From Camelus dromedarius (Eukaryota), in NCBI RefSeq assembly GCF_036321535.1, contig NC_087436.1, positions 12,710,001 through 12,774,000 of the forward strand: 64,000 nucleotides of DNA. The letters are read 5' to 3'. Every line of letters starts with the position of its first letter. Within the stretch, counting starts at the first letter, position 1. The notes below the pieces were generated by a model that was not told where the DNA came from, did no database searches, and saw only the letters and a program-made list of their open reading frames with translations. The translations under genes were made by a program, and so were the position numbers. Shown in pieces: positions 12,812 to 62,894 of the stretch.

Positions 12812-12936
12812 CTTAGTACTGAATTCCCTTCAGGCTGTTCTTTATGCAGAATATGCTGGAAGTAATCTTCTATGGCTTGAGAAGTTGGAAATTTTTTTCA
12901 GGTGTGAGTAGTAGAGGGGGAGCTGGGCTATGACAC
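12812..12936 (-). pseudogene. AtuA-like exon G (125 nt, contains a +1 frameshift)
   Basis: Acceptor ttttatgtacaacag, donor AG|gtatgg; (G)VIAQLPLYYSHLKK, extra base at the A7 run (12892-12898), then FPTSQAIEDYFQHILHKEQPEGNSVL(R). Confidence 0.85.
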
Positions 12937-14206
12937 CTGTTGTACATAAAACATCACATTAACAAGCACATGTACTGAATGTCAATCAAGATGACGATAA
13001 TTGGAAGTATCTTACTCTGATTCACTGAGGATACTGTGTGCCAGGTGGGTATGGGAGAGACAGAGGGGTCTGGGGGATACCATTGACAAATCATTGCCAT
13101 CAGGGTGAATTTCCTGCTGATGAATGTCATTCTCTCCGTTTTGTCAATGTCCTGTTTCTCTAATTCAGGGTGGCCAGATTTAGGTATGTCTAATTTAGGG
13201 CATATCTAAATATTGCATGGGGTATATTTATACTAAAAATTATTCATTGTTTATCTGAAATTCATATTTTATAAGATATTCTTTATTTTATCTGTCAACT
13301 ATAATTATCTCAAGGGGTATTAAGAAATTCTAAGAAAATTTACTTTCATTCATTTTCTTTTCAAAACTAAGCATATGATGTATAGTTGTAACTTGCCAAG
13401 AAGGGACGGAAGATTGACACAATATCAAATGAAGGATGTTAGAATGTTGACTTCTAAAGACTCTAAGTTTTAGAGGTCAAGAACCTTGACCATCCAGCTC
13501 ACTCCTCTATTCTCACCCACCACTGATGTTCTAGGGAATGGTAGGGACTAAATTCTTTTTTTTTGAGTAAAAATTAGCAGGTATAAATGTCTCAATTTTT
13601 GGCCAATACAAACTCTTCTCTCCTATTATCAGGAATGGAAGATTGACCAAACCATTCCTTTAGGTCACTTCAGCTCAGACAGCTCAAATAACTGCAGTGG
13701 GTGATGGTGAGGCACATACACACAAACTATGGCCATTACGCAGATGGCCTGCCAGGTGGAGACGGGGCATCAGTGCAGTGGGTGTTCATAAGACAGCGGA
13801 CATGGGTACCTTTAAAAGGAGTTTGTACACATGAGTTCTTTTAAGCTTACAAATTTACTAGACGATAGATGTTTAGGTCCACTCTGGTTTTGATATATTA
13901 TTTTTACTATAGAACAATGGCTTTTACAGTCCATTTATTGAAAAAATAGTCTGGCTATTCTTGGGATTTCAGGAAAGAGATGAATGAATGACATTTTATG
14001 AGATTAAAAAGGAGAAAGAACCAGGGACGTTATTCTAAGGAGAAAAGGAAAGGATTCAATAATTTCTGAAGAGGAAAAGAAGGAGAAAGGAGTTTCAAGA
14101 ATAAGAAGATATTCTTTAAAATATATATAGGAAATATGTATGAATAAGGAAAAACAGAAATACGGTGATAATAATGAGGTATTGTCCTATTTAAAGAACA
14201 TTAGAG

Positions 14207-15536
14207 GGAAAAGCAAGATGGGGAGTAGAAGGACGCTTATAGCTCACCCTCTCCCACAAATGCACCAAAACTCACACCTATGGGCCCACTCAGCCAACCA
14301 GAGCACCTGCCGAACTCCGACAGAACATCGCCCTCTTCAAAAGACAAAGACGCCAAAAATCTGGTAGGAGAAAAGGAAAAAAGAAAGAAGAAAAAGCAAA
14401 ACAGTGCAGGACCGGTCCCACAGGGAGGGAGCAGCAAAGGAGGACTGGCACTCTTTTGCTGGGTCTCCCCCCTCCAACGGAGAGGCCAATGGGACGGAGG
14501 GAGAGCCTCTAAGGCTCAGATCTGCCCCGAGCACCCCTTGACCGACAGAACTGAGTTAAATGGGCACAAAGGGTCCCCACGACACCCAGCCCGAGATGCA
14601 AGCTGGTAGCTGGGGGCCAGGACAGGTCGCCTGAGCCGGGCGGAGGACTGGGGTGGCTGCACTGAGGCAGCCCTGGGGGACTGCAGGGTGCTGCGCACCG
14701 TGGCTGGGAGGGGATACGGAGCAGAACAACCTCGGTCCCCCATAAATTGTGAAAAAAGCAAAGCAACATGCCTGATGTGCCCTGGGGGGAGGGGCGCCAT
14801 AGCCTTTGTCTCCTCAGACCTGCAATGCCATTACTGGAGCTTCTTGCGAGAAGAGAGGTGAGGCACAGCCACAGCTGCCATCTCCTCCTGTGCGCAGCGC
14901 CCGGGCCGGGGGGGGGGGGGGCGAGACCTGAATCTGCACCCGGGGGCTCCGCAACCTCCTAGGCAGGACTGAGATTTGTTTACAACCCGAGGCCGATAGG
15001 ATCTTTCTGCTCAGAGAACCTGCGCCACCAAGACAAACAAGGAGCTGAGATTTGGCATGGAGCAGGGGCAGGGCCATTTCATGGTCTTCCCCAAGCCCGC
15101 CTACGGAGCGTCCACCGGAGGCGGAGAGGGCAGCTGCACAGAGCAGCGGAGCGACCTGCACCAGGAGAGGGCAGGCGGCCCCCTGCCTTCCTGGCAGGAA
15201 CGCAGCACCTGACCACAGTGCTGGGAGGGGGCGCGATCAGCCCACCTGCCTCACTGGAGCGCAGCATCTGACTGCGGCATTGGGAGGGGGAGTGACCTGC
15301 CCGCCCACCAGGTAAGAGCTCAGCACCTAACCCAGTGTTGGGAGAGGGTGCGATCTGCTAGCCCACAGCCACTGGGGGCAGCATAGACGAGGGCACCAAC
15401 AGAGGGCCTCTGGAAATAGCAAGCTGAGTACGCAAAACAAGGTGAAGACACAAAGACCTCTCGATAAAATCATTAAGAGCACACAGTCTCCAGAAGTAGA
15501 TAACTGATACTCCTTAAGCCACAGTGCCAGAGAGAT
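14207..15536 (+). promoter_or_regulatory. L1 5' UTR (internal Pol II promoter region)
   Basis: GC/CpG-rich 1.3 kb upstream of ORF1, with a CAAGATGG YY1-like motif at its start. Confidence 0.65.
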
Positions 15537-16436
15537 ATGAGCAATATAAAGAAGCAGAGGAACCACTCCCAATTAAAAGATCAAGAGAAATCCCCTAAAA
15601 GCATGATCAAGGAAATAGGCATTGATGGCCTACTAGATCAAGATTTCAAAAAAGGAGTGATCAAAGTACTGAAGGAACTAAAAGAAATAATGTTTAGAGA
15701 TATAAAATATGTCAAAAATGAAATAGAAGCTATAAAGAAGAACCAAGTAGAATTAGTCAACTCATTTGCTGAGATGAGAGCTGACCTAAAGGCTGTGCAA
15801 AGCAGACTAGATAATGCAGAGGAATGAATAAGTGACCTAGAAGACAGGACAACAGAAAGCACCCAATCAGAACAGCTGAGAGAAAAACAAATGAAAAACA
15901 ACGAAAACAATATAAGGGACCTATGGGATAACATAAAGCGTGCCAATCTACGCATAACAGGGGTTCAAGAAGGGGAAGAAAGAACAAAGGGGATTGAAAA
16001 GATATTTGAAGAAATCATGACTGAAAACTTCCCAAACCTAAACGAATCAGATATCCAAGTACAGGAGGCTCAGAGGGTCCCAAACAGGAAGAACTCAAAC
16101 AGACCCACACTAAGACATATCATAATCAAGATGGCCAGAGTCAAGGATAAAGAAATTATCCTAAAGGCAGCAAGAGAAAAACAAAGAGTGGGTTACAAGG
16201 GAACCCCCATAAGGCTCTCAGCTGATTTCTCTACACAAACACTACAGGCCAGAAGGGAGTGGCAAGATATGTTCAAAGTCCTGAATGAAAAAAGATGCAG
16301 CCTAGGATACTCTATCCAGCAAGGCTATCCTTTAGAATAGAAGGAGAGATAAAGAACTTCATAGACAAGCAAAAACTAAAAAGAGTTTAGCAACACTAAA
16401 CCCATGCTAAAAGAAATATTGACAGGTCTACTCTAA
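15537..16436 (+). pseudogene. L1 ORF1p, disrupted
   Basis: Coiled-coil region, then RDLWDNIKRANLRITGVQEGEE, ENFPNL, PIRLSADFS, ARREW; in-frame TGA at 15825-15827 and a frameshift in an A-run near 16290. Confidence 0.9.
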
Positions 16437-17406
16437 ATAGAGAAGAAGCAGGATGCTACAAAAATGAGAAACTCATAACTGGAAAGAAGATAACTGCCAT
16501 GAATTACAAAAAGAATAAACACAAAATTGTAAAAGAAGACATCTAAATCATTAAGAGTGGGAGAGGGAAGCAAGGAAAGCCACTGTGGAAAACAGTATGG
16601 AGATTCCTCAAAAGACTAGGAATAGACTTACTGTATGTCCCAGGAATCCTGCTCCTGAGCATACATCCAGAAGGAACCTTACTTCAAAATGACACCTGCA
16701 CCCCAATGTTCATAGCAGCACTATTTACAATAGCCAAGACATGGAAACAGCCTAAATGTCCATCAAGAGATGACTGAATAAAGAAGATGTGGTATACTTA
16801 TATGATGGAATACTACTCAGCCACAAAAACCGACAACATAACGCCATTTGCAGCAACATGGATGCCCCTGGAGAATGTCATTCAAAGTGAAGTAAGCCAG
16901 AAAGAGAAAGAAAAATACCATATGAGATAGCTCATATGAGGATTCTAAAAAAAGCCAAAAAAAAAAAAAACCCAAAATAGAAATACAAAACAGAAACAGA
17001 CTCATAGACATAGAATACAAACTTGTGGTTGCTAAGGGGGTGGGGGGTAGGAAGGGACAGACTGGGATTTTAAAATGCAGAATAGACAAACCAGATTATA
17101 CTGTATAGCACAGGGAAATATATACAAGATCTTGTGGTAGCTCATAGCGAAAAAAAAAAAAGTGACAATGAATATATATGTGTTCATGTATAACTGAAAA
17201 ATTGTGCTCTACACTAGAATTTGACACAACATTGTAAAATGACTATTACTCAATAAAAAATGTAAAATGAAAAATAAATAAATAAATAAATAAAACAGCA
17301 AAAAAAAAAAAAATATATATATATATATACAGAACATTAGAGAAAAGATGTTTCCCTAAAGGGTGCTCTTAGCAAAAGACCAATTCATAGAAGTGCATTA
17401 TAATAC

Positions 17407-17910
17407 TGAGACAGGAAGGAAGGGGGCAGGGCACAGTCACTAAAGGAATGACACAGCAATGAGCACCAAGATGGCAGAGAAGTCAACTCCCAATAGACCT
17501 TGAGGCCCAAGATGCCAGGAGAGTCAACCTCCAGTGGACTTTGATTTTCATTAAACACATTATAATGTACTCGCATGGTTAATGACATACCCACGGGCGC
17601 CATGACAGTTCAGAGGCTAACCATGAAAGGTTGAAGAGAGGGCAGTGGTCCAATTCCTGGGAATCCCCACTTCTTTTCCAAAGTAATTGGAGTAATCCTC
17701 CCACTTGTTAGATATAAAAATCAACAACCCCTCACCTCATGGTCACTCTCTCTTTCTTGCCTTCTGAGACGGTCCGCACTCTATGTATCTACTTTTAATT
17801 TAACACCTCCCCCACACACACACACACCTCATGGCCTCTCTGGCCTTTGGAGATGGCCTACACTTGGTGTATATAGTGTACATCTTTCTCAATACATCTA
17901 CTTTTACTCA
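17407..17910 (+). mobile_element. ERV LTR, 3'-truncated, same family as 1500-2426
   Basis: Starts TG; aligns by eye to both the host LTR and the insert at 1.5-2.4 kb. Confidence 0.8.
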
Positions 17911-18377
17911 CCAGTCCCCTGACAGCATGGTTCCAATTTCAGTTACCAAGATATATCAACTGGATGTAATTGCAAGATTATCATTCAGTTCATGCACACA
18001 CCCAAAGTGTGCAGTTGTGTTGCCTCCCTGTCTCTCAGTGACAAATCCACAGGGCATTTTATAAAAATAGATCACCGAGAGAGAGAACTGGCCAAGAAAG
18101 ATGAAAGTGTAGCAAAGAAAGGACGTATGATACCAGGGCAAGTAAAATTCGGATCAGTTGTAAAGGAATTATAGAAGAAAGAGCTGACAGGAGGAATGCT
18201 GACACTGTCAGTACTTGAAAGAGCAGATGTGCAGCCAGAGAAAATTGGTAAAGGCAAACTTATCAACATCAGTGAAGAAGTGATTGTGATTAAAAGGATG
18301 AAGATATCCCAGAGGAAATGATGCCTGCTGAAAGAAAACCTTCACCCTAAAGGAATTCTTGGAGCTACGTCACAACA
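17911..18377. mobile_element. Tigger-family (TcMar) DNA transposon remnant
   Basis: gatgtgcagccagag...aaaggatgaagatatcccagaggaa...cttcaccctaaaggaa resembles the Tigger consensus as I recall it. Confidence 0.65.
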
Positions 18378-18470
18378 TTCTTTCACTACAGACCTTTGTC
18401 TCCAATCAGAATTCTTTTCTTTCGAGTATGACAAGAACTGGAGTCTTTTCCTTCCCCCTTTGGGGAGACA
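18378..18470 (+). mobile_element. Isolated 3' end of an LTR of the 7165-7767 family
   Basis: ctttgtctccaatcagaattc...gtatgacaagaactggagtcttttcc...ttggggagaca matches 7676-7767. Confidence 0.8.
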
Positions 18471-18646
18471 TTACCACGCCCTGACCTCAGGTAAACCACA
18501 CTAGTACTTCCTGCCATGGTGTGCTACATACTTGTCATATCATCTTCATAGACACACAAAAACACACTGGGAGACAGAATAGATAATGAAAAATGGAGAG
18601 AATAACTGCTTTGGCAGAAAATACCAGATAGAGAAAATGAACGTAC

Positions 18647-18757
18647 TTTCGAGTCATCAGCTATTGTGGGTAAGTTTGGTGGAGCCAATGTGTCCAGGCT
18701 AAAGGTGAGATCTTCCTGAAAGGTTTCAACATGTTCTCCATTAATATAGATATTAAC
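18647..18757 (-). pseudogene. AtuA-like exon F (111 nt, phase 0 to 0)
   Basis: Acceptor atttttcag, donor AAA|gtacgt; open frame VNIYINGEHVETFQEDLTFSLDTLAPPNLPTIADDSK, fitting the linker after the FFFLYP motif. Confidence 0.75.
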
Positions 18758-21059
18758 CTGAAAAATATTACTTTTAAGCCAGGAAATGGTGAGGGGGGTG
18801 AGATTTTATGAGCAAGTACTTCTCTTCTAGCTTAGCTGGAAGACAAATTGGTCAATTCTTTACCCTCACATTAGAAGTTCTATTTTTGAAGATTTTATGG
18901 AACTACCTGGAGCATACTGCTTTGCCACTCTATTTAGTGCAAAAAAACAAAACCAAACAAACAAAAAACATAACCTGCTTCCAACTTCTCTTTTCTTCTG
19001 CTCTGGCAAGCATTCCTCTCTCAGGAGTACCTTCCTCTGCTTGCTGTTGATGAAGAGAGAGTGACAATGAACTCTAGCTGCTAGTCTGGGGCAAACTAAG
19101 TCGAAGAGCACCAACAAGTGTGGACCTGCGACTGACACTGGAATCAAAGACTCTTTGTTTCTTGAGAATTGATGACTGGTGGCTGCGTCACCAGCACAGC
19201 TCCCTGGAAAAGCATTTCCAGCTTCCTTACGCCGTCCTCCAACAATTGAATCAGATCTGAGGCATACCTGTTCTCAGGTGCCAGGGCCTCACGATGGAGC
19301 TTTTTGTGTCAAAAACAACATCTGCTTCATTTTTTTATCAGGTGTGTTGAGCCTGGCTCATACACCAATGCACAGTCAACTCACATGGTGGCAGGGAACC
19401 TAGAATAGCATGTTTTTTTTGAACTGACTGCATTCGTTTATATGGTTATATGTGGGTGGAACCATATCTCCTTTTTCTTTGTGTCCTAATGCTTAGACAG
19501 CCAGTGCCTGCAATATAGAAACACTCAGTAACTGTTGTGCCAAACATAAGAGTTTTATTTACTTGATTTGCAAAGCAGTTACTCTTGACCTTTTTCATGA
19601 CCAGTGCAAGTGCTGTGAGAACTGGAACCAAGCTGCACAGAGTAGGCAGGCAATAAATACCAAGACGCTCCATCTACACAGATGGCAACACAGATGGCAT
19701 CTTCACTCTCATCCCATCCTGTCCAGCCTGATTAAAATTACTGCTTAGTTCTCCTTCCTTAAGGTTACCAAGGTGAAAGTAACTAATTAACTGTGCCGCT
19801 GTCATTTTAATGTACAGACAATTCACGACTTGTTCATGCTTCTCACCATTGCAAGCTCTGGGCAAAACTGAGCTCTCCTGAAATAATAGGTTTCACTTAT
19901 TTTACAAGGTGATCAGGCAAAAATGGATGCAGCCATACTGAGTGCTATCACCAGGTACTTACCTACGGATTCTCATTCAGGATATGCTTCTTCCAAATGT
20001 TAAGAAATATGCAGAAGCAGAGGCATTGACTATTTACTCTGATAAACTATCTTTCAAGTGTTGCCAGATCTCCATCTTTGATACCTATGAATTAGTTTAT
20101 AATCCATTGCCCTATTGTTTTTGACTTCACAGTGGCTGATGAGAAGATTAAGAGCCTCGATCTTTTCATTAACAGGTGAAGAGGAGGCTTCTTTAAAGCA
20201 AATGATTAAAGTAAGTTGTAAATCCCTTTAAAAAATTAGCTTTATACTCATGCCATACATCGACTCATGTCAATTTGTTATGGCCCAAATTTCTAATAAC
20301 TGCATAAAAAAATCTGCAGATGACATTGGCTGGTGATGCCATGCACTCCTTTTCCATCATGGAACATTTCCATCATTTTCTATGGTCAATGAGATTGGAT
20401 CATCTTGATGATGATCTAGTTTCTGTGATATTACAGATAACTGAAAACTTGGCAGCCATATTGCCAAAAGTCAAGCTGCCAAGAATCCTGCCAATGAATT
20501 CATTAATGAAAAAGATTATATTCTGTTATTGTACTTTCTCAAACTCTAAGCAATTTGCTTTTCACAACAGAGGGCAATTCAGGAAGGTGACGGTTATAAT
20601 CCATCACTTAGTGGATTATAAAGGCAAATCCAGAAACTCCTACACAGGGTGTATTTTCTATGGCCTTTGACAAAGATGGAGTAATTCTAAGAAGCTTGTT
20701 TTTGAGAAGAGCAGAAGTCTCACATACTTCCATTTGGAGTTTAAGGAGAAAATAGAAAGGGGAAAGAAACTGTTTTAAGAGATAGTGGCTTACAAGTTTT
20801 CAGAATGATTGAAAAAACAAGTTCTCTGATACAAGAACCAAATGAATCCCAAACAAGGTAAGAAGGAATGGATAGCTACACAACAGGGTGAAACTGGAGA
20901 AGACCAAAGACAAAGAGAAGCCAGGAAAGAGAAGATGCCTTATCACTCAAGGACTGCCAAACTGACAGCTGATTTTTCAGGAGCTATAGTGGAATAATCA
21001 AGTGCTACAACATTCAGCCTACAAATATTCCTAGTAAAATTATCACTCAAACAAATATA

Positions 21060-21870
21060 GACTCATTTTTTAAGCCTTCATTTTTTAGGAGAGTTTTAGG
21101 TTCACAGCAAAATTGAGTAACACATACAGGGAGGTTCCATTTACCCTTTACCCTCCCACATACACAGCCTTCCCCACTATCAGCATCATCCACCAGACTT
21201 GTATCATTATTACCAAGGATGAACATCATCACCCAGTAGTTTACATTAGGGTTCTCTCTTGGTCTCATACATTCTATGAGTTTGGACATATGTCTTATGA
21301 CATGTATATATCATTATAGTATCATACAGAGTATTTTTACTGCCCTAAAAATCCTGTGTTTCACCTATTCATTCTTCCCTTCTCCCTAACCCTGGCAACC
21401 AGTGATCTTTTTACTGTCCTTATAGTTTCAACTTCTCCAAAATGGCATATAGTTGTAATTATACAGTATGCAGCTTTTACAGATTGGCTCATTTCATTTG
21501 GTAATATGCATTTAAGATTCCTCCATGTCTTTTCATGGCTTGACTGGTAATAATATTCCATTGTCTGATATACCACAGTTTATTTATCTGTTCACCTATT
21601 GATGGATATCTTGGTTGCTTCCAGGTCTTGGCAGTTATGAATAAAGCTGCCATAAACAACTGTGTGCAGGATTTTGTGTGGACATATGCTTTCAATTCAT
21701 TTGTGTAACTATCAAGGAACATGATTGTTGGATCGTATGGTAATAGTATGTTTGGTTTTGTAACAAACTGCCAAACTATCTTCCAAAGTAGGTGTACCTT
21801 TGTGCATTCTCACCAACAATAAATGAGAGTTCCTGTTGTTCTACGTCCTCACCAGCATTCAGTAATGTCA
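21060..21870 (-). mobile_element. Old L1 3' region, minus strand
   Basis: Minus-strand peptide FMAALFITAKTWKQPRYPS plus L1 3' UTR-like sequence. Confidence 0.85.
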
Positions 21871-26841: not shown

Positions 26842-26894
26842 CTTAAACTTTTTGGGGGGGATAAAGGAAGAAAAATGGTTTTAGAACAGGAGAC
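26842..26894 (-). pseudogene. AtuA-like exon E (damaged acceptor, +1 frameshift)
   Basis: SPVLKPFFFLYPP followed by donor AAG|gtaaga; a C7 run (26854-26860) shifts the frame into TAA; the phase-2 acceptor reads ttctaa rather than ttctag. Confidence 0.85.
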
Positions 26895-27090
26895 TTAGAA
26901 ATATAATGCAAAAGAAGTGACAAAAAACATTAGGCTTACAAATCTGGGGGCCCAGAAAAGAGGGAAGGGGTTTCCACAGACCTCTGCTCACTTATCATGC
27001 CCTTCTCACCTCTATCTAGTTATATGTTGACATATACACTGATCTGTTTCTTGTTTAACTGAGATTCCTTCATTACAAAGTGTCTTTGTT

Positions 27091-27304
27091 GGGGAGGGTA
27101 CAGGTCAATGGTGGAGCACATGCTTAGCATGCACAAGGTCATGGGTTTGATCCCCAGTACCTCCACTAAATAAATAAAATAATAATAATAATTAAAAAAT
27201 AATAATAATAATAACAATAACAATAACAATAATAATAATAAACCTAATTACCTCCTCCAAAAAACCAAACAAACCAAAACCAAAACCAAAACCAACCAAC
27301 AAAC
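27091..27304 (+). mobile_element. tRNA-derived SINE with (AAT)n-expanded tail
   Basis: GGGGAGGGTA head, B box, CCTAATTACCTCC motif; TSD AAGTGTCT. Confidence 0.85.
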
Positions 27305-31136: not shown

Positions 31137-31266
31137 GGTTTTGGTTTTTTTGGGGGGGAGGAGGAGGTAACTAGGTTTATTTATTTAATGGAGGTACTAG
31201 GGATTGAACCCAGGACCTCATGCATGCTAGGCCTGTGCTCTACCACTGAGCTATACCCTCCCCCTC
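31137..31266 (-). mobile_element. tRNA-derived SINE
   Basis: Reverse complement of the same head; TSD AAGACCTGTG. Confidence 0.88.
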
Positions 31267-31358
31267 AAGACCTGTGTTTTGACACCATTTAAACATAACA
31301 ATAATATGTGTGGTTTAGGGGTCAATGTATAACAAAAGTATTTTAAAAATGCATGGGT

Positions 31359-41872: not shown

Positions 41873-42038
41873 GGGAGGGAGGGTATAGCTCTGTGGTACA
41901 GCGCATGCCTAGCATGCATGAGGTCCTAGGTTCAATTCCCAGTACCTCCGTTAAACAAACAAACAAACAAACCTAATTACTTCCCCTCCCCCCAAAAAAA
42001 TACAAACAACCAAAACCAACCAAACAACAACAAAAAAA
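41873..42038 (+). mobile_element. tRNA-derived SINE
   Basis: GGGAGGGTATAGCTCTGTGGTAC...GGTTCAATTCCCAGTACCTCC; TSD-like AAAAAAAGYAATTA. Confidence 0.88.
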
Positions 42039-44188: not shown

Positions 44189-44320
44189 CGGGGAGGGTAT
44201 AGCTCAGTGGTAGAGCGCATGTTTAGCAGGCATGAGGTCCTGGGTTCAACCCCCAGTGCCTCCTCTAAAAATAAATAAATTAAATAAGTAAATTACCTCC
44301 CCCCAAAATAAATTAAATTA

Positions 44321-50098: not shown

Positions 50099-53000
50099 TA
50101 ACATCACTAGACAGATCTTCCAGACAGAAAATAAACAAGGCAACAGAGAAATTAAATACTACAATAGAAAAACTAGATTTGGTGGATATTTTCAGAGCAT
50201 TACACCCCCCAAAAATAGGATATACATTCTTTTCAAGTGCACATGGAACATTTTCCAGGATCGATCATGTACTTGGACACAAAAGAAACCTCAACAATTT
50301 TAAGAAGATAGAAATTATCTCAAGCATCTTTACTGACCACAATGCCATGAAACTGGAAATCAACAACAGAGAAACAAAGAAGAAAAAAAGGAAAGCATGG
50401 AGATTAAACAATATGTTATTGAAAAAACAATGGATCAATGAGGAAATCAAAGCTGAAATTAAAAAATACCTTGAGACAAATGATAATGAAAGCACAACCA
50501 CTCAAAACCTATAGGACACAGCAAAGGCAGTGCTAAGAGGGAAGTTTATAGCGATACAGGCCTTCCTCAAAAAAGAAGAACAATCTCAAATAAACAATTT
50601 AACCCACCACCTGAATGAATTAGAAAAAGAAGAAAAAAAGCCCCAAAAAGCAGCAGAAGGAAGGAAATAATAAAGATCAGAGAGGAATTAAATACAATAG
50701 AGATTAACAAGACCATAGAAAAAATCAACCAAACCAAAAGCTGGTTTTTTGAAAAAGTAAATAAAATTGACAAACCTCTGGCCAAACTCACAAAGAAGAA
50801 AAAAGAGAGAGCACAAATTAGCAAAATAAGAAAGGAAAATGGAGAAATTACAACAAACAAAATAGAAATACAGAATATCATACGAGCATATTATGAAAAA
50901 CTATATGGAACCAAACTGGATAACCTAGAGGAGATGGACAAGTTTCTGGAAACATACTGTCCACCAAAACTGAATCAAGAAGAATCTGAACACTTGAACA
51001 ATCCGATCGCTAGAAAGGAAATATAAATAGCAATTAAAAACCTCCCTACAAATAAAAGTCCAGGACCGGACGGCTTCACCGGGGAATTCTACCAAACATA
51101 CAAAGAAGAACTCATACCAGTCCTTCTCAAACTCTTCCAGACGATTGAAAAGGAGGGATTACTCCCAAACTCATTCTATGAAGCCACCATCACCCTGATA
51201 CCAAAACCAGGCAAAGACACTACAAAAAAAGAGAATTATAGGCCAATATCACTGATGAACATAGACACCAAAATCCTCACCAAAATTTTAGCAAATAGAA
51301 TCCAACGACACATAAAAAAGATTATACATCATGACCAAGTGGGGTTCATCCCAGGGACACAAGGCTGGTTCAACATACGCAAATCAATCAGTGTAACACA
51401 TCACATCAACAAGAGAAAGGACAAAAACCACATGATCATCTCAATCGATGCAGAAAAAGCATTTGATAAAATTCAACACCCATTTATGATAAAAACTCTC
51501 GCCAAAGTGGGTATAGAGGGAACATATCTCAACATAATAAAAGCTATATATGACAAACCTACAGCCAGCATAGTACTCAACGGTGAAAAACTCAAAAGCT
51601 TCCCACTAAAATCTGGGACAAGACAAGGATGCCCACTATCACCACTCCTATTCAATATAGTCCTGGAAGTCCTAGCCACAGCAGTCAGGCAAGAGAAAGA
51701 AATAAAAGGGATCCAAATTGGAAAAGAAGAGGTAAAAGTGTCATTATATGCTGATGACATGTTACTATATATAGAAAACCCTAAAAGGTCCACACAAAAG
51801 CTACTAGAGCTGATTGAAGAATTCAGCAAGGTAGCAGGTTACAAAATTAACGTTCAAAAATCAGTTGCATTTCTTTACACTAACGATAAATCAACAGAAG
51901 AAGAAAGTAAAGAAACAATCCCCTTTAAAATAGCACCCAAAGTAATAAAATATCTGGGAATAAATCTAACCAAGGAGGTGAAAGAATTATACATGGAAAA
52001 CTATAAACCATTGATGAAGGAAATTAAAGAAGACTTTAAAAAATGGAAAGATATTCCATGCTCTTGGATTGAAGAATCAATATTGTTAAAATGGTCACAC
52101 TGCCCAAGGCAATCTACAGATTTAATGCAATCCCTATCCAATTACCCAGGACAGATTTCACAGAACTAGAAAAAATCATAATAAAATTCATATGGAACCA
52201 TCAAAGACCTAGAATTGCCAAAGCATTACTGAAGAGAAAGAAAGAGGCTGGAGGAATAACTCTCCCAGACTTCAGACAATACTATAGAGCTACAGTCATC
52301 AAGACAGCATGGTATTGGTACCAAAACAGACATATAGACCAATGGAACAGAATAGAGAGCCCAGAAATGAACCCACAAACTTTTGGTCAACTCATCTTTG
52401 ACAAAGGAGGCAAGAATATACATTGGAATAAAGACAGTCTCTTCAGCAAATGGTGTTGGGAAAACTGGACAGCAGCATGTAAAACAATGAAGCTAGAACA
52501 CTCCCTTACACCATATACAAAAATCAACTCAAAATGGATTAAAGACTTAAACATAAGACAAGATACAATAAACCTCCTAGAGGAAAACATAGGCAAAACA
52601 TTATCTGACATACATTTAAAAAATTTTCTCCTAGAAGAAATAAAAGCAAGAATAAACAAATGGGACCTAATGAAACTTACAAGCTTCTGCACAGCAAAGG
52701 AAACCAGAAATAAAACAAGAAGAAAACCTACGGAATGGGAGAAAATTTTTGCAAGTGAAACCGACAAAGGCTTGATCTCCAGAATATATAAGCAGCTCAT
52801 ACGACTCAATAAGAAAAAAATAAACAACCCAATCCAAAAATGGGCAGAAGACCTAAACAAGCAATTCTCCAAGGAAGACATACAAATGATCAAAAAGCAC
52901 ATGAAAAAATGCTCCATATCACTAATTATCAGAGAAATGCAAATCAAAACTACAATGAGGTATCACCTCACACCAGTCAGAATGGCCGTCATTCAAAAAT

Positions 53001-53767
53001 CCACAAATGACAAATGCTGGAGAGGCTGTGGAGAAAGGGGAACCCTCCTACACTGCTGGTGGGAATGCAGTTTGGTGCAGCCACTATGGAAAACAGTGTG
53101 GAGATTCCTCAAAAGACTAGGAATAGACTTACCATATGACCCAGGAATCCCACTCCTGGGCTTGTATCCAGAAGGAAGTCTACTTCAGGATGACACCTGC
53201 ACCCCAATGTTCATAGCAGCACTATTTACAATAGCCAAAACATGGAAACAGCCTAAATGTCCATCAACAGGTGACTGGATAAAGAAGAAGTGGTATATTT
53301 ATACAATGGAATACTACTCAGCCATAAAAACCGACAACATAATGCCATTTGCAGCAACATGGATGCTCCTGGAGAATGTCATTCTAAGTGAAGTAAGCCA
53401 GAAAGAGAAAGAAAAATACCATATGAGATCGCTCATATGTGGAATCTAAAAAACAAAAACAAAAACAAACAAACAAACAAAAACAAACTGTAAATAAAGG
53501 ACAGAAATAGACTCACAGACAGAGAATACAGACTTGTGGTTACCAGGGGGGTGGAGGGTGGGAAGGGATAGACTGGGATTTCAAAATTGTAGAATAGACT
53601 ACACTGTATAGCACGGGGAAATATACACAAAATGTTATGATAACTCACAGAGAAAAAAATGTGACAATGAGTGTGTATATGTCCATGAATAACTGAAAAA
53701 TTGTGCTGAACACTGGAATTTGACACAACATTGTAAAATGATTATAAATCAATAAAAAATGTTAAAA
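50099..53767 (+). mobile_element. 5'-truncated young LINE-1 (ORF2 from mid-endonuclease, 3' UTR, poly-A)
   Basis: EN motifs FSRIDH and TDHNAM, RT motifs [10 protein letters not shown] and YADD, C-terminal CWRGC..HCWWEC; TSD AAAAATCAAGTAGCAGA at 50082-50098 and 53768-53784. Confidence 0.97.
50101..53449 (+). pseudogene. L1 ORF2p (endonuclease/reverse transcriptase), partial and disrupted
   Basis: ORF pieces 50179-50514, 51255-52169 and 52091-53449; stops at 50512 and about 51024; frameshifts near 50640 and 52070. Confidence 0.93.
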
Positions 53768-53796
53768 AAAAATCAAGTAGCAGAATCATTAATTAG

Positions 53797-55242
53797 AGGT
53801 GGAGCTGATCCAGGTTTCATGAGGCCTGAAGCTAACAGAATTTGCAGAAAGTTTGTTGAGAAAAATAATAAATTATAAAATCAGATATGAAAATGAATGA
53901 GAAAAAAATCACAAGTTATAAAATTGTAGAAAGCTGACAAGTGCCACTAATATTACAGAATGTAGAAGAAAGTATAATTTTTGTTAATTTATTGCCTAAT
54001 ATCTTCTCCTACATTTCTGTGCTGCATACTCTGATCATCTCTTCAAATGCAAATAATTTCTATGTAAATATAAATGCAAATATATACAAATGCAATTGCA
54101 AATACTATTTTAAATTTCTATGTAAATAGTCAAAAGGTTTTTCAGTCATTTCTTCAGCACAGCAGATTGAAATGTATTCTTTATCATTAACAGTTTTGCA
54201 AAAAATATTCAGCTTCACAACTCTTTTATGTCCCGTAAGTTTAAGTTTGGGACAGAAGTCTCCTTCATACTTGAGTCGTAAGATTTCAGGGCATTTTGAT
54301 TCTCTTGTGCAAGTTAATCTTGAGTGCTTTATGACAACACTCAACCAGCTTGTCACTGATGGTTCATTTTGTGGGGTGTTATAAGGTTTTTGCTAGTTTA
54401 CTGATGGAAGTACTTGTTGTCAAATCAGCGAGAAAGTTAGATCTTTTTCCAGTGTGTTCATATGATTCATTACATCACTTAATTAATTACTTTCTATTCG
54501 AAATTTCTCTCTCTCCATGAATGACTGCTTTTGACTTGGTCTGCAAATTTCTTATGGTTTAATTCTTGATAGGAGAGTATCTATTGATCACACATAGAAA
54601 TATAGTCAGAGTAATTTCACTTTGGTGTGCTATTATAATTACAGATGTTTCACTGTCAATTATATTTCTGAGAAGGAATATAAAATATAAAAGGAATATA
54701 AAACCTCTAGTTTTGATTAGGTGACAGTGAGAATTCAATTCTGCCTACAGGCCTAACGAATTTTACACATTTGATGAATTTTATGCACGTAATGATTAGA
54801 AGAATTTTCCACATATGGACTAGCTTCTGCCTGCACACCTTTCAAATCTGCTTCTCCTCCACTACGCTGTATTTCTGATGCTGGACCATTCAACACAGCA
54901 ACTAAACTTCTGGCTCCACTGTCCACTTCGTGAAATTAGGTGAGTCAGTGTGGCTGGGCAGGACTATTGTAGACTATGTATCACACAGCCGACACCACAA
55001 AGGCTGACAATACCGGACACAGATCAGGCTGGGGGGGCACAGAAACACAGTCTATGGAAAAGTTTGATGAAAGGGAAAAGTGGAAAGAGATAATAATATT
55101 CTTACAGATAAAACATCTTACTCTTAGAAAATTTACAAAAATATCTGACTATGTGAGCACAACAGTAGAGCCCCAGAAGGAGATGTGTAAGTGAGGGGCC
55201 CTGGAGTTTAAGCTCCACTAGCTTTTTTGTGAATATACCTCT
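53797..55242. mobile_element. hAT-type DNA transposon remnant (Zaphod/MER115-like)
   Basis: Ends gatccaggtttcatgaggcctgaagct and gtgaggggccctggagtttaagct...atacctctg resemble hAT-Tip100 termini as I recall them. Confidence 0.5.
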
Positions 55243-55274
55243 GCTCTTTCCCTAATGTGGTTCTTGTTTTAATT

Positions 55275-56420
55275 TAATTTAATTCTTCTGTAGCTTTATT
55301 GAGGTCTAATTGACATATAACACTGTGTAAGTTTAAGGCGTACAACGTGATGCTTTGATGCACCACATATTTTGCAAAATGTTTACCACAGTAAGGTGAG
55401 TTAGCACACCCTTCACCGCACATAATTATCACTTTCTTCTTGTTGTTATGGTGAGAACATTAAAGCTCTATTCTCACAGCAACTTTCGAGTATACAGAAC
55501 AGCGAGGTCAGCACACTGCACATTATCTCCAGAACTTATTCAACTTAGAACTGAATCTTTGGACCCTTTGACCAACACTTCCCCAATTCCCCTACCCCTA
55601 GGCCTAGGCAACCAGCATTCTATTCTCTGTTTCCATGAGCTCCATGTTTCTGATCCCATATACAAGAGAGATCATACAGTGTCTGTCTTTCTCTATCTGA
55701 CTTATTTCACTCAGGCTAATGCCTTCAAGGTCCATCTATGTTTATATATATACACCACATTTTTTTTATTCATTCATCCATCCATGGACACTTAAGTTGC
55801 TTCCATGTCTTGGCTGTTGTACATAATGTTGCAAAGAACAGAAGGGTGCACATATCTTTTTGGGTTAGTGTTTTCATTTCCTTTGGATAAATACCCAGAA
55901 GTGGAACTGCTGGATCATATGGTAGTTTCAATTTTTTGAAGACCCTCCATACTATTTTGCATAGTGGCTGCACCAATTTACATTCCTACTAAACATGTAC
56001 AAAGGTTCCCTTTTCTCTACATCTTCACAAGCACTTGTCATCTCTTGTCTTTTGGTAACTGCCATTCTAAAAGCTAAGAGGTGATATCTCGTTGTGGTTC
56101 TGGTTTGCATTTCACTGATGATTAGTGATACTGAGCACCTCCTCATGGACTTGTTTGTCTTCATGTCCATTTGTATGTCTTCTTTGGAAAACTGTCTATT
56201 CAAGTTCTCTGCCCATTTTTTTTAAATTGGACTTTTTTTTCTGCTATTGAATTGTACAAGTTCCTTATATATTTTGAATATTAACCCCTTATCAGGTATG
56301 TGGTTTGCAAATATTTTCCCCCATTCTATATGTTGCCTTCTCATTTTGTTGATTGCTTCTTTTGCTGTGCAGACACTTTTTAGTTGAATGTAGTTCCACT
56401 TGTTGATTTTTGCTTTGTTT
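55275..56420 (-). mobile_element. Older L1 3' region, minus strand
   Basis: Minus-strand peptides [29 protein letters not shown] and [12 protein letters not shown]. Confidence 0.9.
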
Positions 56421-57091
56421 TAATTTTAAAATGTAAGTTTTGCACTGCCAAAATTCAATTTTCCACTCCACTTTCATCATTGGTGGAAGAGGTAAGACGT
56501 GGCCACAGAATAGAACTTCTCCCTGGGACATTCACGTGACTATAAGATTTTATTTTTCTTCTTGGGAGCCAGAGGAGGATGCCTGCCCTCTCTCAGGTTA
56601 CCCACTTCACCTCCCTAAGCCTCAGTTTCTCCATATGTACAATGTGGGAATTCAAGGCCTTTCAAAAATTATGTCCCAATGAAGGAATGAGTTCATTGGA
56701 TTAGAAACTGAAGCCTCCTGAGTGGCCTGGTCCTGGGATCATGGCAGGTCCATTTCAGCTGTAAGGGAAAAGCCAGAGCACTGCAGGCACGGCCCTGTGT
56801 GCCCGGGGGTGGCGTGGCACATGGCACCATCATGCCTCATCACGGGGCACCAGGAAAGAAGAGACCATTCTGGACAAATGGATCTGAATGTAGGGAGACC
56901 GGAAGCCAGGATGGGAGTGGTGGCATGGGCACAGCAAACCCAAAATGAACTCCACAAGGTTGCTTTGTCTGGGACAACCACCTAAATCCATCATTTGACA
57001 AACACATAATGGGAAAACAGGTACAGCCACACTTAATGTCAGGAGGTTTCTAAAATTTCGATGAACTTGAAATAAATATTACGAGAAGGGG

Positions 57092-57180
57092 TATATACTT
57101 GATGAATGTTTAAAGGTTGATGAATGTTTAAAGGTTTAAAGGATGAATGTTTAAAGCTATATACTTGATGAATGTTTAAA
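57092..57180. repeat. Short irregular tandem repeat of GATGAATGTTTAAA
   Basis: Four copies of GATGAATGTTTAAA with variable spacers. Confidence 0.9.
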
Positions 57181-57337
57181 TGCTCAAAGGCAAGAGGGGT
57201 TTGAGAACAGCATGACCCACGTAGCGTAGCACACGTTGCCAAGTTCAGAAGGGCAAACTAATGAATACTATAACTGAGCTGGTGGTAAGAAGGCAAGGGA
57301 TTTTCAGAGCTGTAACCGTAAAAATATATGTATTTAC

Positions 57338-57435
57338 CCATTACAGTCCCTGCTGGTGCAATTTCTCTTGAAAAAACTTTTTACTGCCTTCTGTTTATGA
57401 TGAGCTGAAAGCCAGAGGACCACTTCTCGAGGACC
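57338..57435 (-). pseudogene. AtuA-like exon C (98 nt, contains a +1 frameshift)
   Basis: Acceptor ctttgttaatag, donor G|gtaaat; GPREVVLWLSAHHKQKAVK, then an extra base in the A5 run (57378-57382), then VFSREIAPAGTVM. Confidence 0.88.
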
Positions 57436-59480
57436 CTATTAACAAAGATTAGAAATTAACAAATGCATAGCTCAAAAAAAAGGCACAAATCTGTGTTTGC
57501 ATGAAAGATTTTTTTTCTGGACCGTATAACTATCTCTGGTTTGCACGATTACTCTAAGGAGTTTATTATTATGTTTTCCTGATTATGCCATGCATGTCCA
57601 CAAAAATAAACACTTTATTAAAAATAGATAACACTCTTAGTCCCCGATAAATGAATAATAATTAATTTTATCTAAAGAACACAACTTGACACATGGTAAT
57701 TACAGCTTGGAAAAACTGCTAAAATTATCTTGGTAAAATTCCTATTTTTTTCATTTCCCTCTTTTATCCCATTGATTTTGATTAGTTTCTTCACATGTCA
57801 GGTGATCTTAAATTATGTGTGTATAACTGCTGTAACTCCATTTCTCCTTAGAATATCTACACCATAGAGGAAATACAGTCATTGGATAGTTTATTACAGA
57901 ATGAATCAATTATCCTACTTTGAAATAGAGTTATAGCTTATAGATATGTAAATAAAAATGTCTTATTTGAAAACTTGAAGAATCCAGCAATCCCTTTCTT
58001 TGAAACGTGTGGTCATCTGCGAGGGCACTAAAAAGGAGCAGAAATGTGAGGACGAGTTCTGCCGCTTCTTCTAAAGACCTGCTTGTCTTTAATTAAGTCA
58101 GTTCTTTTCTCCATGACACAATTTTCCCTTTTAGTAAAATGCAGATCATATCAGCTTCCTAACTACTGCGTAGACCTATTATGATGAAACTAAGTGTGTC
58201 TTCAGATGTGAAACATTTCTTCAAGTACAAATATGAGATACAATTGTTTTTAATAGGACCAATAATTAAAGTAAACGTCTACTTTTCCCATTATGTTTAC
58301 TGTCAATCTGTCTAAAACCAACTTAATGAATCTACTTGACAATTTAATTATCTGACTCTATTGAGGTTCATAGGCACAGCAAGAGAAAAAGGCAGAGGTA
58401 CTGTTTTCCAGCATCTTTTAATAAAACATACCTTCCAACCAACAAATCAAAAGTTGACTTTCACAGTAACCTTTCATTTTAAGTTCTACATTCACGAGTT
58501 CTAATTCAGTGGAGTAAATATGGTGATTAAGCCACCATAGTGGCAATAGAGCACACATTTCTATGAACAGTGAAATATCTACACTTTGACACCTGGCTCC
58601 TGTTTCTGGGTTTTATCAAGCATCTAAAATTTCCTATATAATTTTAAAAGGCCTCTAGTTTATATCCTGACCTTACCACACACTAGTTGTACAAAATAAA
58701 ACACAGAAGTTCTTGGCATTTTGGGGGCTCTATAAAATGAAATGAATAACAGACTGAAAAAATTACGGAACCAAGAATTCCTTCTCCACAAACCTGTTAT
58801 CAAAATAAAATATTTAGTCAATATCTTGTTGAGCTTACTTACTATTTTATAGAAAAGAAGAAATTCATAAATAGAAAAGAATCTCAATAAAATTTTGAAC
58901 ATAGACCTTTGAGTTATTTACTTTAATATACCTAGGACTATAAATAACAATATAATTTTTCTCTTCTAAAATAGAATGAATTATCTTTTTATGTCATTCA
59001 AGCCTTACTAATTCAGTTACAAAGGTCTTAGATCTTTTTAATTCACTGCACTAAAATGATACTCTTGCTCCTAGTGGTTAAAAATGCAGATATTAGAACT
59101 AGACTGTAATGGATATAAAATCTGGTCTTGTTCCTCAGGAGCTGTTGGACATTAGACAATTTATTCAACCTCTCTGTGCCTGAGTTTGCTCATTTATAAA
59201 ATAGAAGTACTAACAGACCTGCCTGGAAGATTGCTGTGAGAGCTAAAGTTCAACACCAGTAAAGCACTTAGAACAGTGCCTGACACTTATTAACCCCTCA
59301 ATTCATGTTAACTGTTACCACTACGGTTGTCACTGCTGTTTCCCATACATTTTCCCATCTTTGATTAACACTTAAGTGAAAGCAATCACTATAAACCAGA
59401 ATATCTACAAATACTCCAGAATAGATAAGATGGTCAGACCATTGTGAATATGACTGTTGGGTTAAAAAATCTTTTAAAAG

Positions 59481-59958
59481 ACAATAGACAAGACATGGAA
59501 ACAACCTAAATGTCCATCAACAGATGACTGGATAAAGAAGTTGTGGAATACTACTCAGCCATAAAAAAGAATAAAATAATGCCATTTGCAGCAACATGGA
59601 TGGACCTGGAGATCTATCATTCTAAGAGAAGTAAGCCACAAAAAGAAAAAAAAAAACATCATGGGATATCACTTATTTGTGGAATCAAAAAAAAAAGACA
59701 CAAATAAATTTATTTACAAAACAGAAACAGACTCACGGATATAGAGAAAAAACTTTTGGTTACCAGGGAGTAAAGGGGGTAGGAAGGGATAAATTGGGAG
59801 TTCGAAATTTGTACCTCTTGAGGAGTGATGGAATTGTTAGGTATCTTGATTGTGGCGGCGGTTTCATAGGTGTATACATCTATCAAAATTCATCAAATTG
59901 TATGTCTGGGATATGTGTAATTTACTGTACAGAAATTACACCACAATAAAGTTGTTTT
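59481..59958 (+). mobile_element. L1 3' fragment
   Basis: ORF2 C-terminal [10 protein letters not shown] / FAATWMDLE-like sequence plus 3' UTR; imperfect AAAAA(A/G)TCTTT flanks. Confidence 0.85.
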
Positions 59959-60735
59959 TAAAAAGTCTTTAAAAAGGGTTAAAGATGTGAACAGAAAGTT
60001 TATACAAGACATATCTGTAATAATGCTGCTAGGAATAAATACAGAGATACAGAAAAAACTACCTAGATAAGGTCAAGTTAATTACCTATAATTTAATAAG
60101 ACATTGATCATACATCATTTTATTTAATTTGGCTGTTTAAAAAATAATCCCAACATACCTTCAGTTAAATTAGATTAATAAAATTGATTTATAATGGGCA
60201 ATTACAATAGATTTTGACATGACTTATATGTGAAATTTTTAAATGTAAATAAAAACTTAATTCTGAATCACTGATCCCTTTTCTAGTCAATAGTGAGAAA
60301 TTTTCCAGCAAGAATGGAAAAAATATTTCTTCTGTTTTTACTGCTGAAGAACAAACAACATATTAAGACCAAGTTAGAAGTTAACATTTTAAATTTATAG
60401 CTCTCTAAAAACTTTTGAAGAAAACCATATATATGACACCCAAGAGCCTAAACATAAGTCAAATATTAAAGGTGGAACAAGAAAGGAAGGGAATGGAATT
60501 GAGGTGAGTTTTGCCATAGGCAAATAGAAAATTCAAACTGAATTATAAGCTTGTTAAAGAACTATAGATTTTTTAAAAAAAAATACACACTGTAAAACAG
60601 AAATAACCCCAAATTCATTATCCATTAAACCTGAGCCAGGTTGGTCTTTACAATAAACACTTTCATACATAATTTATTGAGAATATTTCAACCCATTCAT
60701 TTACACTGGAATAAGAAATCCCCTGTTCTACTTAC

Positions 60736-60847
60736 CCCATTTAAATCTGCTTTAGCTTGTGCTCCATATGCTTCTTCAGATCCTAAAGTCTGAACGTGAA
60801 CCTCACTATAGCCTTCCAAGCCGGCTTCTTCAAACAGGAGACAAGTT
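60736..60847 (-). pseudogene. AtuA-like exon B (112 nt, phase 2 to 0)
   Basis: Acceptor tttactttgctgcag, donor GGG|gtaagt; open frame (R)TCLLFEEAGLEGYSEVHVQTLGSEEAYGAQAKADLNG; phase matches exon A. Confidence 0.9.
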
Positions 60848-62775
60848 CTGCAGCAAAGTAAATGCAATTAAAAAATATTCATGAATTTATGGTAGGTCAA
60901 TTCCAAGAATCCCTTAGTTTCGGCCCCTAATAGAGGTCACTCATTTTGGACACCAATAACAATTACAGTGAAAGGAGGGCAATCTAGGGGCATTTAAGGC
61001 CATCAGGTCACTCCCGAATACAGCTTCAGCTTCACATCAAACATTTGATATCTTATAGCCTCAATGTCCTTATCCTCTAAACTGTCTGAAATTGAAGATT
61101 TCCTCTTTGATCCAATAATTATATGTACAAGTATTTTTTATATTTCTAAGGGACTCGAGTTTTGGGGGTTTTTTGTTGCTTAAAGTTTAATTGCTAATCT
61201 GTTGTATTACATATGGTCAAAGAATGCGGTCTGCAAAATTTCTACTTTCTGAAATGGATTAAAGTAGCCTTGAGGATGCTAGGAAATAAGGTGCAGACTT
61301 GTCTTGTGGGGGAAAATGTTCTCTCTGTAGCTATTAATTCAACACTGTTATATTATGTTCTAATACTCTGTTCTTTTTTATCAGCTGGATAAATATTAAG
61401 ATCTGTTGAATTCATCCTCTAATTGGGCAGTTTGTAGCATTTGTGTTTATTAGCGCAGCTATGATTTTGACAACTTTTGAGACGTTGTTTGAATGCTTTC
61501 TGTTTTAATGTTTGCTTTGTTTCCTGACTTTTAGAATAGCATTCATTCATTGAACAATATTTACTGAATGTTGTATCAGGTATGTTTTCATTGCTTTTAT
61601 TTTATTTAAGTGCCTAAGAAAGTATTCCTCTTTCAGGTTTCTTTGTTCAAATATCCCCTAATAAAGTCTTCCTTAAGTGCTAAATTTAAATTATGTTCCA
61701 TTATTATTCTTTTACATAACACTCTTTAATATTTCTTCAAAGCACTTTTCAGTTCTTTGCAGGTTATTAGTTTAATGTCTATCCACATACTAAAGCTATT
61801 GGTCTGTCTTGCACACAAGTATACACCCAAAGCCCAGAAGTGATTGCTATGTAGTAAAGGACTCAAATGTTAGTGGAAAGAGAGGATTAATTAATTAATA
61901 ATCTGGATAGTCTTAAAAATTCATATTGTAGTTGTCTTTAATTTAAAAATACTTTGATTCTACATTGAATGATGGGATTGTGCACAATTTTAATTCATTT
62001 TCCAGTTTATTTTTTCCACTTTTAAATGTTTCATGATCATCATTGTTGATAAAGGATAAAATGATTTGCTATGAGTCCCTCCCTGTGAAAAAAGGATTAG
62101 CACTAATTTGTTTATTCCTGTGTCTCACCAGCACTTACTCATTGTAATTAATAAGGGCTTGAATCTTTAACGTAGATTCTCTTGAGTAACTCAGCAACAT
62201 GGTTTAAATACAGGACATGGTAGGAAGCATCAGCACTGCAGATGGAACGTAAAAGATTTGATTCAAGCATCAGAACTTTCATAAACGTTGTTAATTAAAT
62301 TTGGCTATAGAACTATTATGAAATTTCTTTCTCTGGATTTTTTAAAGAAAAGAAAATTTTCTGGGACAAACTATTAATGCTCTCCAGACACCAAATGGTT
62401 GAAGGTACCATATGACCTGTCAAAGGATCTGTGACTTCTGATTCTGTTGCCCGTATGCATTATGTTAACTTTCTGAATGTAATCTTCAGGATAAGAGAAA
62501 AAAAAAAGCATAGGTTTCTAGTAGAATTTAGCATCCAAGAAACTTTTCCAATACTTGTTTCTAGATATCTGTGCAAGCTAAACTGTAAAGTTGCTGATGC
62601 AAGACTCATTTGTATCAGAACCTGCCACAACATAAAATGTACCGAACAAATGTATTAATACTCAGGGGAAAATGTTAAGTGATCGTAATAATGATTCTTG
62701 TTAAAGAATTTGATTGCTAACATGCCTTGAATTTAGTTAGACTGGAGAGTCCATTTTTTTGTCTCATAGACAAAC

Positions 62776-62894
62776 CTTTTCAAAATACTTTCTTTCAGCT
62801 GTCCACCTGTCCACCTCTCCTTTTCAGCCGCTTTGGGTCCTCCCGGTGTGCAGACAGCAGTTGCTCTGAAACCGTCATGGTAACAAGCACTTAC
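62776..62894 (-). pseudogene. AtuA-like exon A (119 nt, phase 0 to 2)
   Basis: Acceptor ttatgtcatcag, donor AG|gtttgt; open frame VSACYHDGFRATAVCTPGGPKAAEKERWTGGQLKESILK(R). Confidence 0.88.

Follow-up and report, generated by a model that had tools for sequence, protein, structure and literature searches.

Does a metabolic gene of the AtuA/DUF1446 family lie hidden on the minus strand of a 64-kb stretch of Camelus dromedarius DNA, and does it still encode a protein? The stretch in question (contig NC_087436.1, positions 12710001-12774000 of a 2.3-Gb genome in 171 contigs), referred to here as the window, very probably holds the 3' two-thirds of a unitary pseudogene, the dead orthologue of a vertebrate two-domain AtuA gene (PF07287 plus PF23544). 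This reading is built on homology, collinearity, splice-site retention, lesions, single-copy status and gene neighbours, each of which was observed directly. Genome coordinates equal 12710000 plus the window coordinate, and values above 64000 or below 1 denote flanking DNA. The window and its flanks together amount to 114 kb of analysed sequence with an N content of zero.

Seven exon relics of the AtuA/DUF1446 family were placed on the minus strand of the window, collinear with the reference protein, by tblastn with the killifish protein P0015 (Nothobranchius kadleci A0A1A8CKT5, 661 residues), the canary protein P0010 (A0A8C9UF61, 601 residues, 'Acyclic terpene utilisation N-terminal domain-containing protein') and two further fish homologues. 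Their bounds were set by the flanking AG and GT (Table 1). The significance of the placements was measured by frameshift-tolerant alignment of the seven reference segments against the whole window, with two shuffled windows as control. Every segment reached its best score (60 to 112) at the expected minus-strand place, as compared with 29-39 on the plus strand and 27-45 in the shuffled windows, and a chance origin of the seven matches is excluded. When the six frames of the 114 kb were scanned with a profile built from 12 vertebrate homologues, 15 matches reached an independent E-value (i-E) below 50; all 15 were collinear on the minus strand and none lay on the plus strand. Together, E_1 to E_6 cover killifish residues 365 to ~540 without a gap. 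The initial annotation, made from the letters of this DNA, had claimed seven collinear minus-strand exons of 40-125 nucleotides (nt). All seven were found, the size range fits, and the claimed 5' end at 62894 is exact, with the claimed 3' end at 12812 being 5 nt off. The measured exon lengths and phases also bear out its claim that, with the lesions corrected, exons A-F can be joined in phase.

The splice sites of these exons are largely retained: the AG acceptor is present in seven of seven cases and an unambiguous GT donor in six of seven, with a usable GT in the remaining exon, E_4. The E_4 donor is ambiguous by one codon, since AAG followed by GTGTAAGT is usable and GTG followed by TAAGTT would fit the fish and bird protein. 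E_4 is otherwise open, with its AG acceptor kept and no lesion seen. Two further exons are free of lesions, namely E_2 (CAG acceptor, GTAAGT donor, and a phase that matches E_1 and E_3) and E_6 (CAG acceptor, GTACGT donor, tblastn E 5e-8 against P0010). E_1 also has an open frame flanked by AG and GT; it contains ~12 extra nt, which we read as tandem duplications of an 8-nt unit (GGTGGACA, twice) and a 4-nt unit (GAAA, twice) that are net in frame. In the other three exons, E_3, E_5 and E_7, the length departs by one base from that required by the neighbouring phases. E_3 has a frameshift at an A/T run, leaving 98 nt where the neighbouring phases demand 3n+1, and its entering frame meets a stop just beyond the donor; AG and GT are kept. 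E_5 carries one additional base in a C7A5 run (52 nt versus the 3n required), which brings an in-frame TAA to the exon end, while AG and GTAAGA are preserved. E_7 is shifted at an A7 run (130 nt versus the 3n required) and keeps its CAG acceptor and GT donor.

When the locus and its flanks were searched by tblastn with fish and bird proteins, further exons were recovered beyond both ends of the window. The complete relic has at least 14 recognisable exons and extends over 87,624 bp of the minus strand, from window coordinate 84851 down to -2772; seven of its exons lie outside the window, past both ends. The 50-kb, seven-exon 'hidden gene' of the initial annotation must therefore be revised on two counts, as it amounts to the 3' two-thirds of an 87.6-kb relic, and its coding frame is broken. 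A CpG island is present at the first relic exon (window coordinates ~84600-85200, GC content 0.68-0.79, CpG observed/expected ~0.9) and may be a still-active promoter. No CpG island was found inside the window, where the GC content is 33-43%.

No exons were found in the expected intervals for killifish residues 207-280, 346-364, 541-567 and 609-636, which total ~150 residues and were sought with a profile per interval, with tblastn using 12 homologues, and with frameshift-tolerant alignment including controls. The best minus-strand scores for these segments were 21-33, versus 20-40 for the plus strand, the reversed protein and the shuffles. In a comparison of fish and bacterial AtuA proteins, residues 207-280 form the most conserved stretch of the family, so that an intact exon there would have been obvious. 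Weak candidates at 68871-68786, 63798-63766, 14946-14720 and 9765-9663 (scores 26-34) were rejected as exons because they were level with the controls. At the C-terminal end, killifish residues 568-608 align with E_7 and residues 637-660 with the last relic exon, which lies beyond the window, and Pfam gave no PF23544 match for the E_7 piece.

Table 1. Features of the locus in window coordinates; LRAT and fibrinogen rows are in contig coordinates. Relic exons are listed in 5' to 3' order. Scores are those of the frameshift-tolerant alignment against the range of the controls; break points are those of mis-spliced or truncated database protein models.
Feature	Position (strand)	Length (nt)	tblastn placement	Reference residues	Score/controls	Coinciding break point (models)
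Outside-window exon	84851-84815 (-)			killifish 64-75 (CASAFWGDTAAS)		
Outside-window exon	77554-77455 (-)			killifish 76-108		
Outside-window exon	76257-76188 (-)			killifish 111-131		
Outside-window exon	73656-73519 (-)			killifish 133-173 and beyond		
Outside-window exon	71221-71134 (-)			killifish ~177-206		after YLG, exon end at 71134 (P0014, P0028)
E_g, outside window (GFP...IPG exon)	66073-65862 (-)			killifish 281-345		both ends (P0002, P0003, P0005, P0001)
E_1	62894-62776 (-)	119	62900-62775	killifish P0015 ~365-401	103/33-38	
E_2	60847-60736 (-)	112	60849-60727	killifish ~402-437	83/34-39	
E_3	57435-57338 (-)	98	57435-57339	killifish ~438-469	102/31-38	after GTGM, donor (P0025, P0028)
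E_4	34742-34702 (-)	41	34752-34702	killifish ~470-483, APGLMAVVGGRPKV	60/27-29	
E_5	26893-26842 (-)	52	26893-26846	killifish ~484-495 and beyond, SPVLKPFFFLYP...	63/27-34	between K and VD, E_5/E_6 junction (P0024, P0025)
E_6	18757-18647 (-)	111	18802-18647	canary P0010 ~521-561, VNIYINGEHVETFQEDLTF...	112/34-45	before DLPSG, donor (P0028)
E_7	12936-12807 (-)	130	12937-12808	568-608, start of C-terminal AtuA ferredoxin-like domain	84/39-44	between ANI and G, acceptor (P0010)
Last exon, outside window	-2708 to -2772 (-)			killifish 637-660		
LRAT-domain match	12687452-12687835 (-)					
Fibrinogen-C-domain match group, 5' of relic	12812496-12817182 (+)					
Fibrinogen-C-domain match group, 5' of relic	12837601-12838296 (+)					
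Fibrinogen-C-domain match group, 5' of relic	12849252-12851205 (-)					
L1 fragment, reverse-transcriptase frame	51027-52166 (+)					
L1 fragment, ORF1-like frame	15828-16337 (+)					
Rfam tRNA match	44193-44264 (+)					
Rfam tRNA match	41879-41950 (+)					
Rfam tRNA match	31189-31260 (-)					
Rfam tRNA match	9872-9943 (-)					

One-base frameshifts occur in four exons of the relic in all (E_b, E_3, E_5 and E_7), the one in E_b being a 1-nt deletion at a T7 run. In E_g, a net loss of 4 nt precedes a perfect 19-nt tandem duplication, and the entering frame meets two stops between these lesions. The donor of E_c is TT in place of GT, and an exon that ends in '...CLG' is directly followed by TGA. 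The open stretch that precedes the first relic exon lacks an in-frame ATG, and in the last relic exon a TAA comes three codons ahead of the normal end and AC stands in place of the acceptor AG. The 19-nt duplication unit (TATTGTATGAAATTGGTGA, ~65900-65940, minus strand) lies in the best-conserved exon; its two copies are identical, which marks it as a young event in an already dead gene.

The replacement of conserved residues was assessed with 11 fish and 3 bacterial AtuA proteins, which share 63 invariant columns. The relic exons cover 48 of these, with 15 not covered; 33 of the covered residues persist and 15 have been replaced; the replacements include G170R, D171V, N139S, N144S, Y203C, G304W and Y326C. 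The relic does not show the combination of invariant residues and an intact frame that marks a functional AtuA member. Because of the frameshifts, stops, lost donor, absent start codon, undetectable core exons and replaced invariant residues, the protein is no longer encoded. The relic introns measure 1.8-22.6 kb and contain L1 fragments. The locus combines a retained exon-intron structure with disabling lesions, as a unitary pseudogene does, and shows no contiguous intronless coding sequence of the kind that a processed pseudogene or a transferred gene would have.

Single open exon pieces were compared with the PF07287 profile, and matches were obtained at collinear model positions for E_d (25.4 bits at 73-117), E_g (21.8 bits at 260-286) and E_1 (16.8 bits at 306-343); only E_d lies above the cut-off of 22.8 bits. 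In the whole genome the same profile gave three weak matches, of which two (21.9 and 19.1 bits) are minus-strand matches a short way 5' of the window and the third, on another contig, is noise (E 6.1). The AtuA/DUF1446 membership put forward in the initial annotation is borne out by the collinear matches; a PF07287 match indicates sequence ancestry and not a working member. With a 46-residue open piece of the nearest relic exon on the 5' side of the window, tblastn gave matches in plasmid genes with E down to 4e-5, eight of the 15 rows listed coinciding with genes that carry the annotation 'acyclic terpene utilization AtuA family protein'. HMMER with this piece against 1.84 billion proteins yielded 34 matches at E<=0.001, among them the full-length proteins P0015, P0010 and P0024 (the last of 532 residues). 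Word-index protein searches with two open relic peptides (78 and 46 residues) gave no match, since the relic is too diverged for shared 5-mers.

The closest relatives are vertebrate proteins. All 120 of the P0015 relatives listed are teleost proteins with PF23544 and PF07287, mostly named 'uncharacterized protein lratb.1' or 'si:ch73-132f6.5'. A lenient alignment of the relic covers ~441 of the 661 killifish residues, 247 of them identical, and the order of the domains, PF07287 and then PF23544, appears to be common to the relic and its fish and bird counterparts. In the latter the annotated protein is intact, at 600-690 residues, whereas the frame of the relic is broken and its core exons are undetected. 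Pseudomonas AtuA, of the atuABCDEFGH cluster, and the plasmid 'AtuA family proteins' (L004-L006) belong to the same Pfam family as the relic, but the bacterial AtuA genes are intronless and stand in operons with acyl-CoA enzymes, in contrast to the intron-bearing relic. A long Achromobacter form of AtuA (595 residues) is 49% identical to the killifish protein and aligns to relic exons at E 3.8e-8 and 8.7e-5. We found no paper on a vertebrate or mammalian member, and genome-annotation databases may already list the locus as a pseudogene.

Intron positions were compared by setting the break points of the database protein models beside the relic exon ends. The coincidences (Table 1) are consistent with relic exon ends that match vertebrate exon ends, as judged from these protein models. 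A group of eukaryote-like fragments (P0004, P0007, P0009, P0013, P0019 and P0030-P0032) has an intron or exon start between '...AEQ' and 'LVYEIGDP'. The vertebrate exon has no boundary at this point, which suggests that intron positions of the family differ between eukaryote lineages.

The position of the relic among its neighbours was examined on both sides. The best LRAT-domain match in the genome (138.8 bits) belongs to an open reading frame (ORF) of 189 residues, for which the HRASLS3/LRAT chimera 4Q95 is a match at 2.1e-29 and PLAAT proteins reach no better than 3.6e-12; it is therefore taken to be LRAT. This ORF and the relic share a strand, and its ATG follows the last relic exon on the 3' side at a distance of ~19 kb. 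On the 5' side the relic stands head-to-head with a three-gene fibrinogen cluster, of which the group at 12837601 is one exon spanning the whole fibrinogen-C domain. We take the names and order to follow the same pattern as in human, with FGG, FGA and FGB beside LRAT. The fibrinogen-LRAT position of the relic is known from this genome alone. All three matches of P0015 in the 2.3-Gb genome fall in this locus, and no second copy was found by the P0015 or PF07287 genome searches, which score the best candidates only and thus give the copy count as a lower bound. Vertical inheritance of an intron-bearing gene, as had been proposed, agrees with the vertebrate nearest relatives and with the fibrinogen-LRAT slot, and the description of a decaying unitary pseudogene holds given the many lesions and the lack of a second copy. 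With an ancestral gene that is intact in teleosts and a bird, the orthologue in this lineage would have become dispensable; after the loss of need it would have drifted neutrally and retained the ancestral exon-intron layout. The kind of object is ordinary gene loss.

The teleost 'lratb.1' proteins in NCBI and UniRef (P0035-P0153) carry AtuA domains only (PF07287 and PF23544) and no LRAT domain. In two retinoid studies, lratb.1 is used as the symbol for a lecithin retinol acyltransferase gene (PMC7691524, PMC13325558). The symbol may rest on adjacency to, or read-through with, lratb. Expression data filed under lratb.1 may thus concern a different enzyme. The relic would fix the ancestral position of the vertebrate gene beside LRAT, which probably explains the lratb.1 symbol in teleosts.

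With respect to the ancestral function, a profile of fish and bacterial AtuA proteins reached chain A of 9ERQ/9EVF in the PDB (E 8.5e-6, profile positions 107-408). This entry, labelled both 'AtuA family protein' and 'citramalate lyase, subunit A (cmlA)', is the sole solved structure reached by the family profile; a single-sequence PDB search with P0015 gave no match. A role in the lyase step of the citronellol pathway has been proposed for Pseudomonas AtuA. Fish proteins have ~60 poorly conserved N-terminal residues ahead of the first conserved motif of the consensus, and this segment would fit a targeting presequence. According to a preprint, Cml of Raoultella planticola splits citramalate directly into pyruvate and acetate (bioRxiv preprint 2026, 10.64898/2026.01.16.699985); CmlAB is very distant from the vertebrate protein and, in that same account, a two-subunit enzyme acting on the free acid. 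In another study, a fungal AtuA-family protein is placed in the mitochondrial matrix (PMC13399572). From the distant homology to CmlA and the role long proposed for Pseudomonas AtuA, we infer that the ancestral protein may have been a mitochondrial carbon-carbon lyase for a 3-hydroxy-3-alkyl acid or its CoA ester. The chemistry of this enzyme family is only now emerging, with the citramalate lyase as its first and so far only solved member. The locus revealed no link to diet or terpenes, and no observation spoke for or against the herbivore, terpenoid or branched-chain acyl-CoA ideas of the initial annotation.

A counterpart of the best-conserved exon survives in another mammal. In a cluster of sequences from Logan contigs (P0001 and P0154-P0157), a gene call runs through one intact exon into both flanking introns. 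P0155 aligns with the relic locus over all 147 residues, the intron-derived parts included, and the exon bounds are identical; since the intron-derived parts align, the source is a related mammal. The mammalian exon is open and is identical to canary at 55 of 66 residues and to killifish at 52 of 65, compared with 40 of 64 and 39 of 63 for the relic exon. No difference between P0001 and P0155 falls in the 66 residues of the exon, as against seven among 41 intron-derived residues (Fisher p 8.6e-4), a contrast that suggests purifying selection on the exon in this lineage. This mammalian gene is known from the one exon alone, and an intact, apparently constrained exon in a related mammal fits the earlier suggestion that the gene may still be intact in relatives. 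The GFP...IPG exon is unusually conserved between bacteria and vertebrates. Among the best 80 of 218 metagenome stretches encoding relatives, which are mostly from marine or environmental contigs, apparently bacterial homologues are 51-71% identical to P0155 and none is a close mammal-like match.

Several points weigh against the reading of the locus as a dead gene with the history and function proposed here. All four one-base frameshifts, three of them in-window, sit in homopolymer runs; E_2, E_4 and E_6 are lesion-free and E_1 stays in frame; the CpG island persists at the first relic exon; the function is read from a distant relative, with a PDB match obtained by the profile only; and the fish link to LRAT comes solely from the database symbol 'lratb.1'. 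Homopolymer runs are error-prone sites in long-read assemblies, so that the four frameshifts (T7 in E_b, A/T in E_3, C7A5 in E_5 and A7 in E_7) could be assembly errors. Extended to all apparent lesions, this would leave an intact and functional gene, as might also be suggested by the CpG island at exon 1 and the number of splice sites kept. Such an explanation is nevertheless very improbable, because E_g carries a 19-nt tandem duplication and a net 4-nt deletion, neither of which is a homopolymer lesion, the E_c donor is TT, the start codon is missing, ~150 residues including the conserved core are undetectable in the N-free 114 kb, and 15 of the 48 covered invariant residues are replaced. 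Assembly error cannot account for the remaining lesions, the undetected exons or the altered residues. A weak argument in the same direction is that 14 DNA or probable-DNA runs (10 samples from 7 studies of the same organism) contain 0.95-0.98 of the sampled words of 57300-64000. The matches might alternatively stem from bacterial contamination, horizontal transfer or a processed retrocopy, AtuA being a mainly bacterial family whose metagenome homologues come as close to the best-conserved exon as described above. The intron-bearing structure refutes this. Introns of up to 22.6 kb, with L1 fragments in them, separate the exons, the nearest relatives are fish, bird and mammal, the exon ends match vertebrate models and the locus is flanked by vertebrate genes, so that practically no chance is left to this origin.

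A different matter is whether the locus, although dead as a coding gene, is transcribed as a non-coding unit, either as a long non-coding RNA (lncRNA) or as upstream exons or an alternative promoter for LRAT. The persistent, GC-rich CpG island would suit such a unit, as would the survival of acceptors and donors in the window despite coding decay and the strand and orientation shared with LRAT. The lratb.1 symbol on a teleost AtuA-domain protein would likewise agree with shared transcripts or read-through. For human, long transcripts reaching upstream of LRAT are part of the same idea. On the other hand, moderate periods of neutral drift would also leave splice sites intact by chance. In the RNA-seq runs, the sampled words of 57300-64000 are present at shares of 0.21-0.22 in two runs and 0.05 in one, shares that are no evidence of expression. 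We regard a non-coding unit as unlikely.

It is possible, and we propose it tentatively, that the AtuA-like gene is still working and constrained in some placental mammals and was lost independently in others, including this species, and that the CpG-island promoter and splice sites of the dead copy may survive by serving LRAT or a non-coding transcript. If true, the gene would encode a patchily retained mammalian metabolic enzyme. As a unitary pseudogene, the relic is a clean, well-anchored gene loss in the AtuA enzyme family, and its 19-nt duplication and missing core exons are dated markers for the timing of that loss. Mammals appear to differ in retention of the AtuA-like gene, so that a search for the substrate is tractable with the fish or bird protein, or with that of a mammal retaining the gene.

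The remaining sequence of the window contains repeats. Its long ORFs are L1 fragments or have no family. Two of the L1 fragments lie in relic introns, one with a reverse-transcriptase ORF (PF00078, E 5.5e-49) and one with an ORF resembling the RNA-binding domain (RBD) of ORF1 (PF02994, E 1.4e-24). Four Rfam tRNA matches of 44.6-53.4 bits were detected (Table 1), the translations of which recur as '...GIEPRTSCML...' in the tblastn noise. By their sequence, these tRNA-like matches are probably copies of one tRNA-derived short interspersed element (SINE) family. The repeats and the flanking genes are consistent with a mammalian genome.

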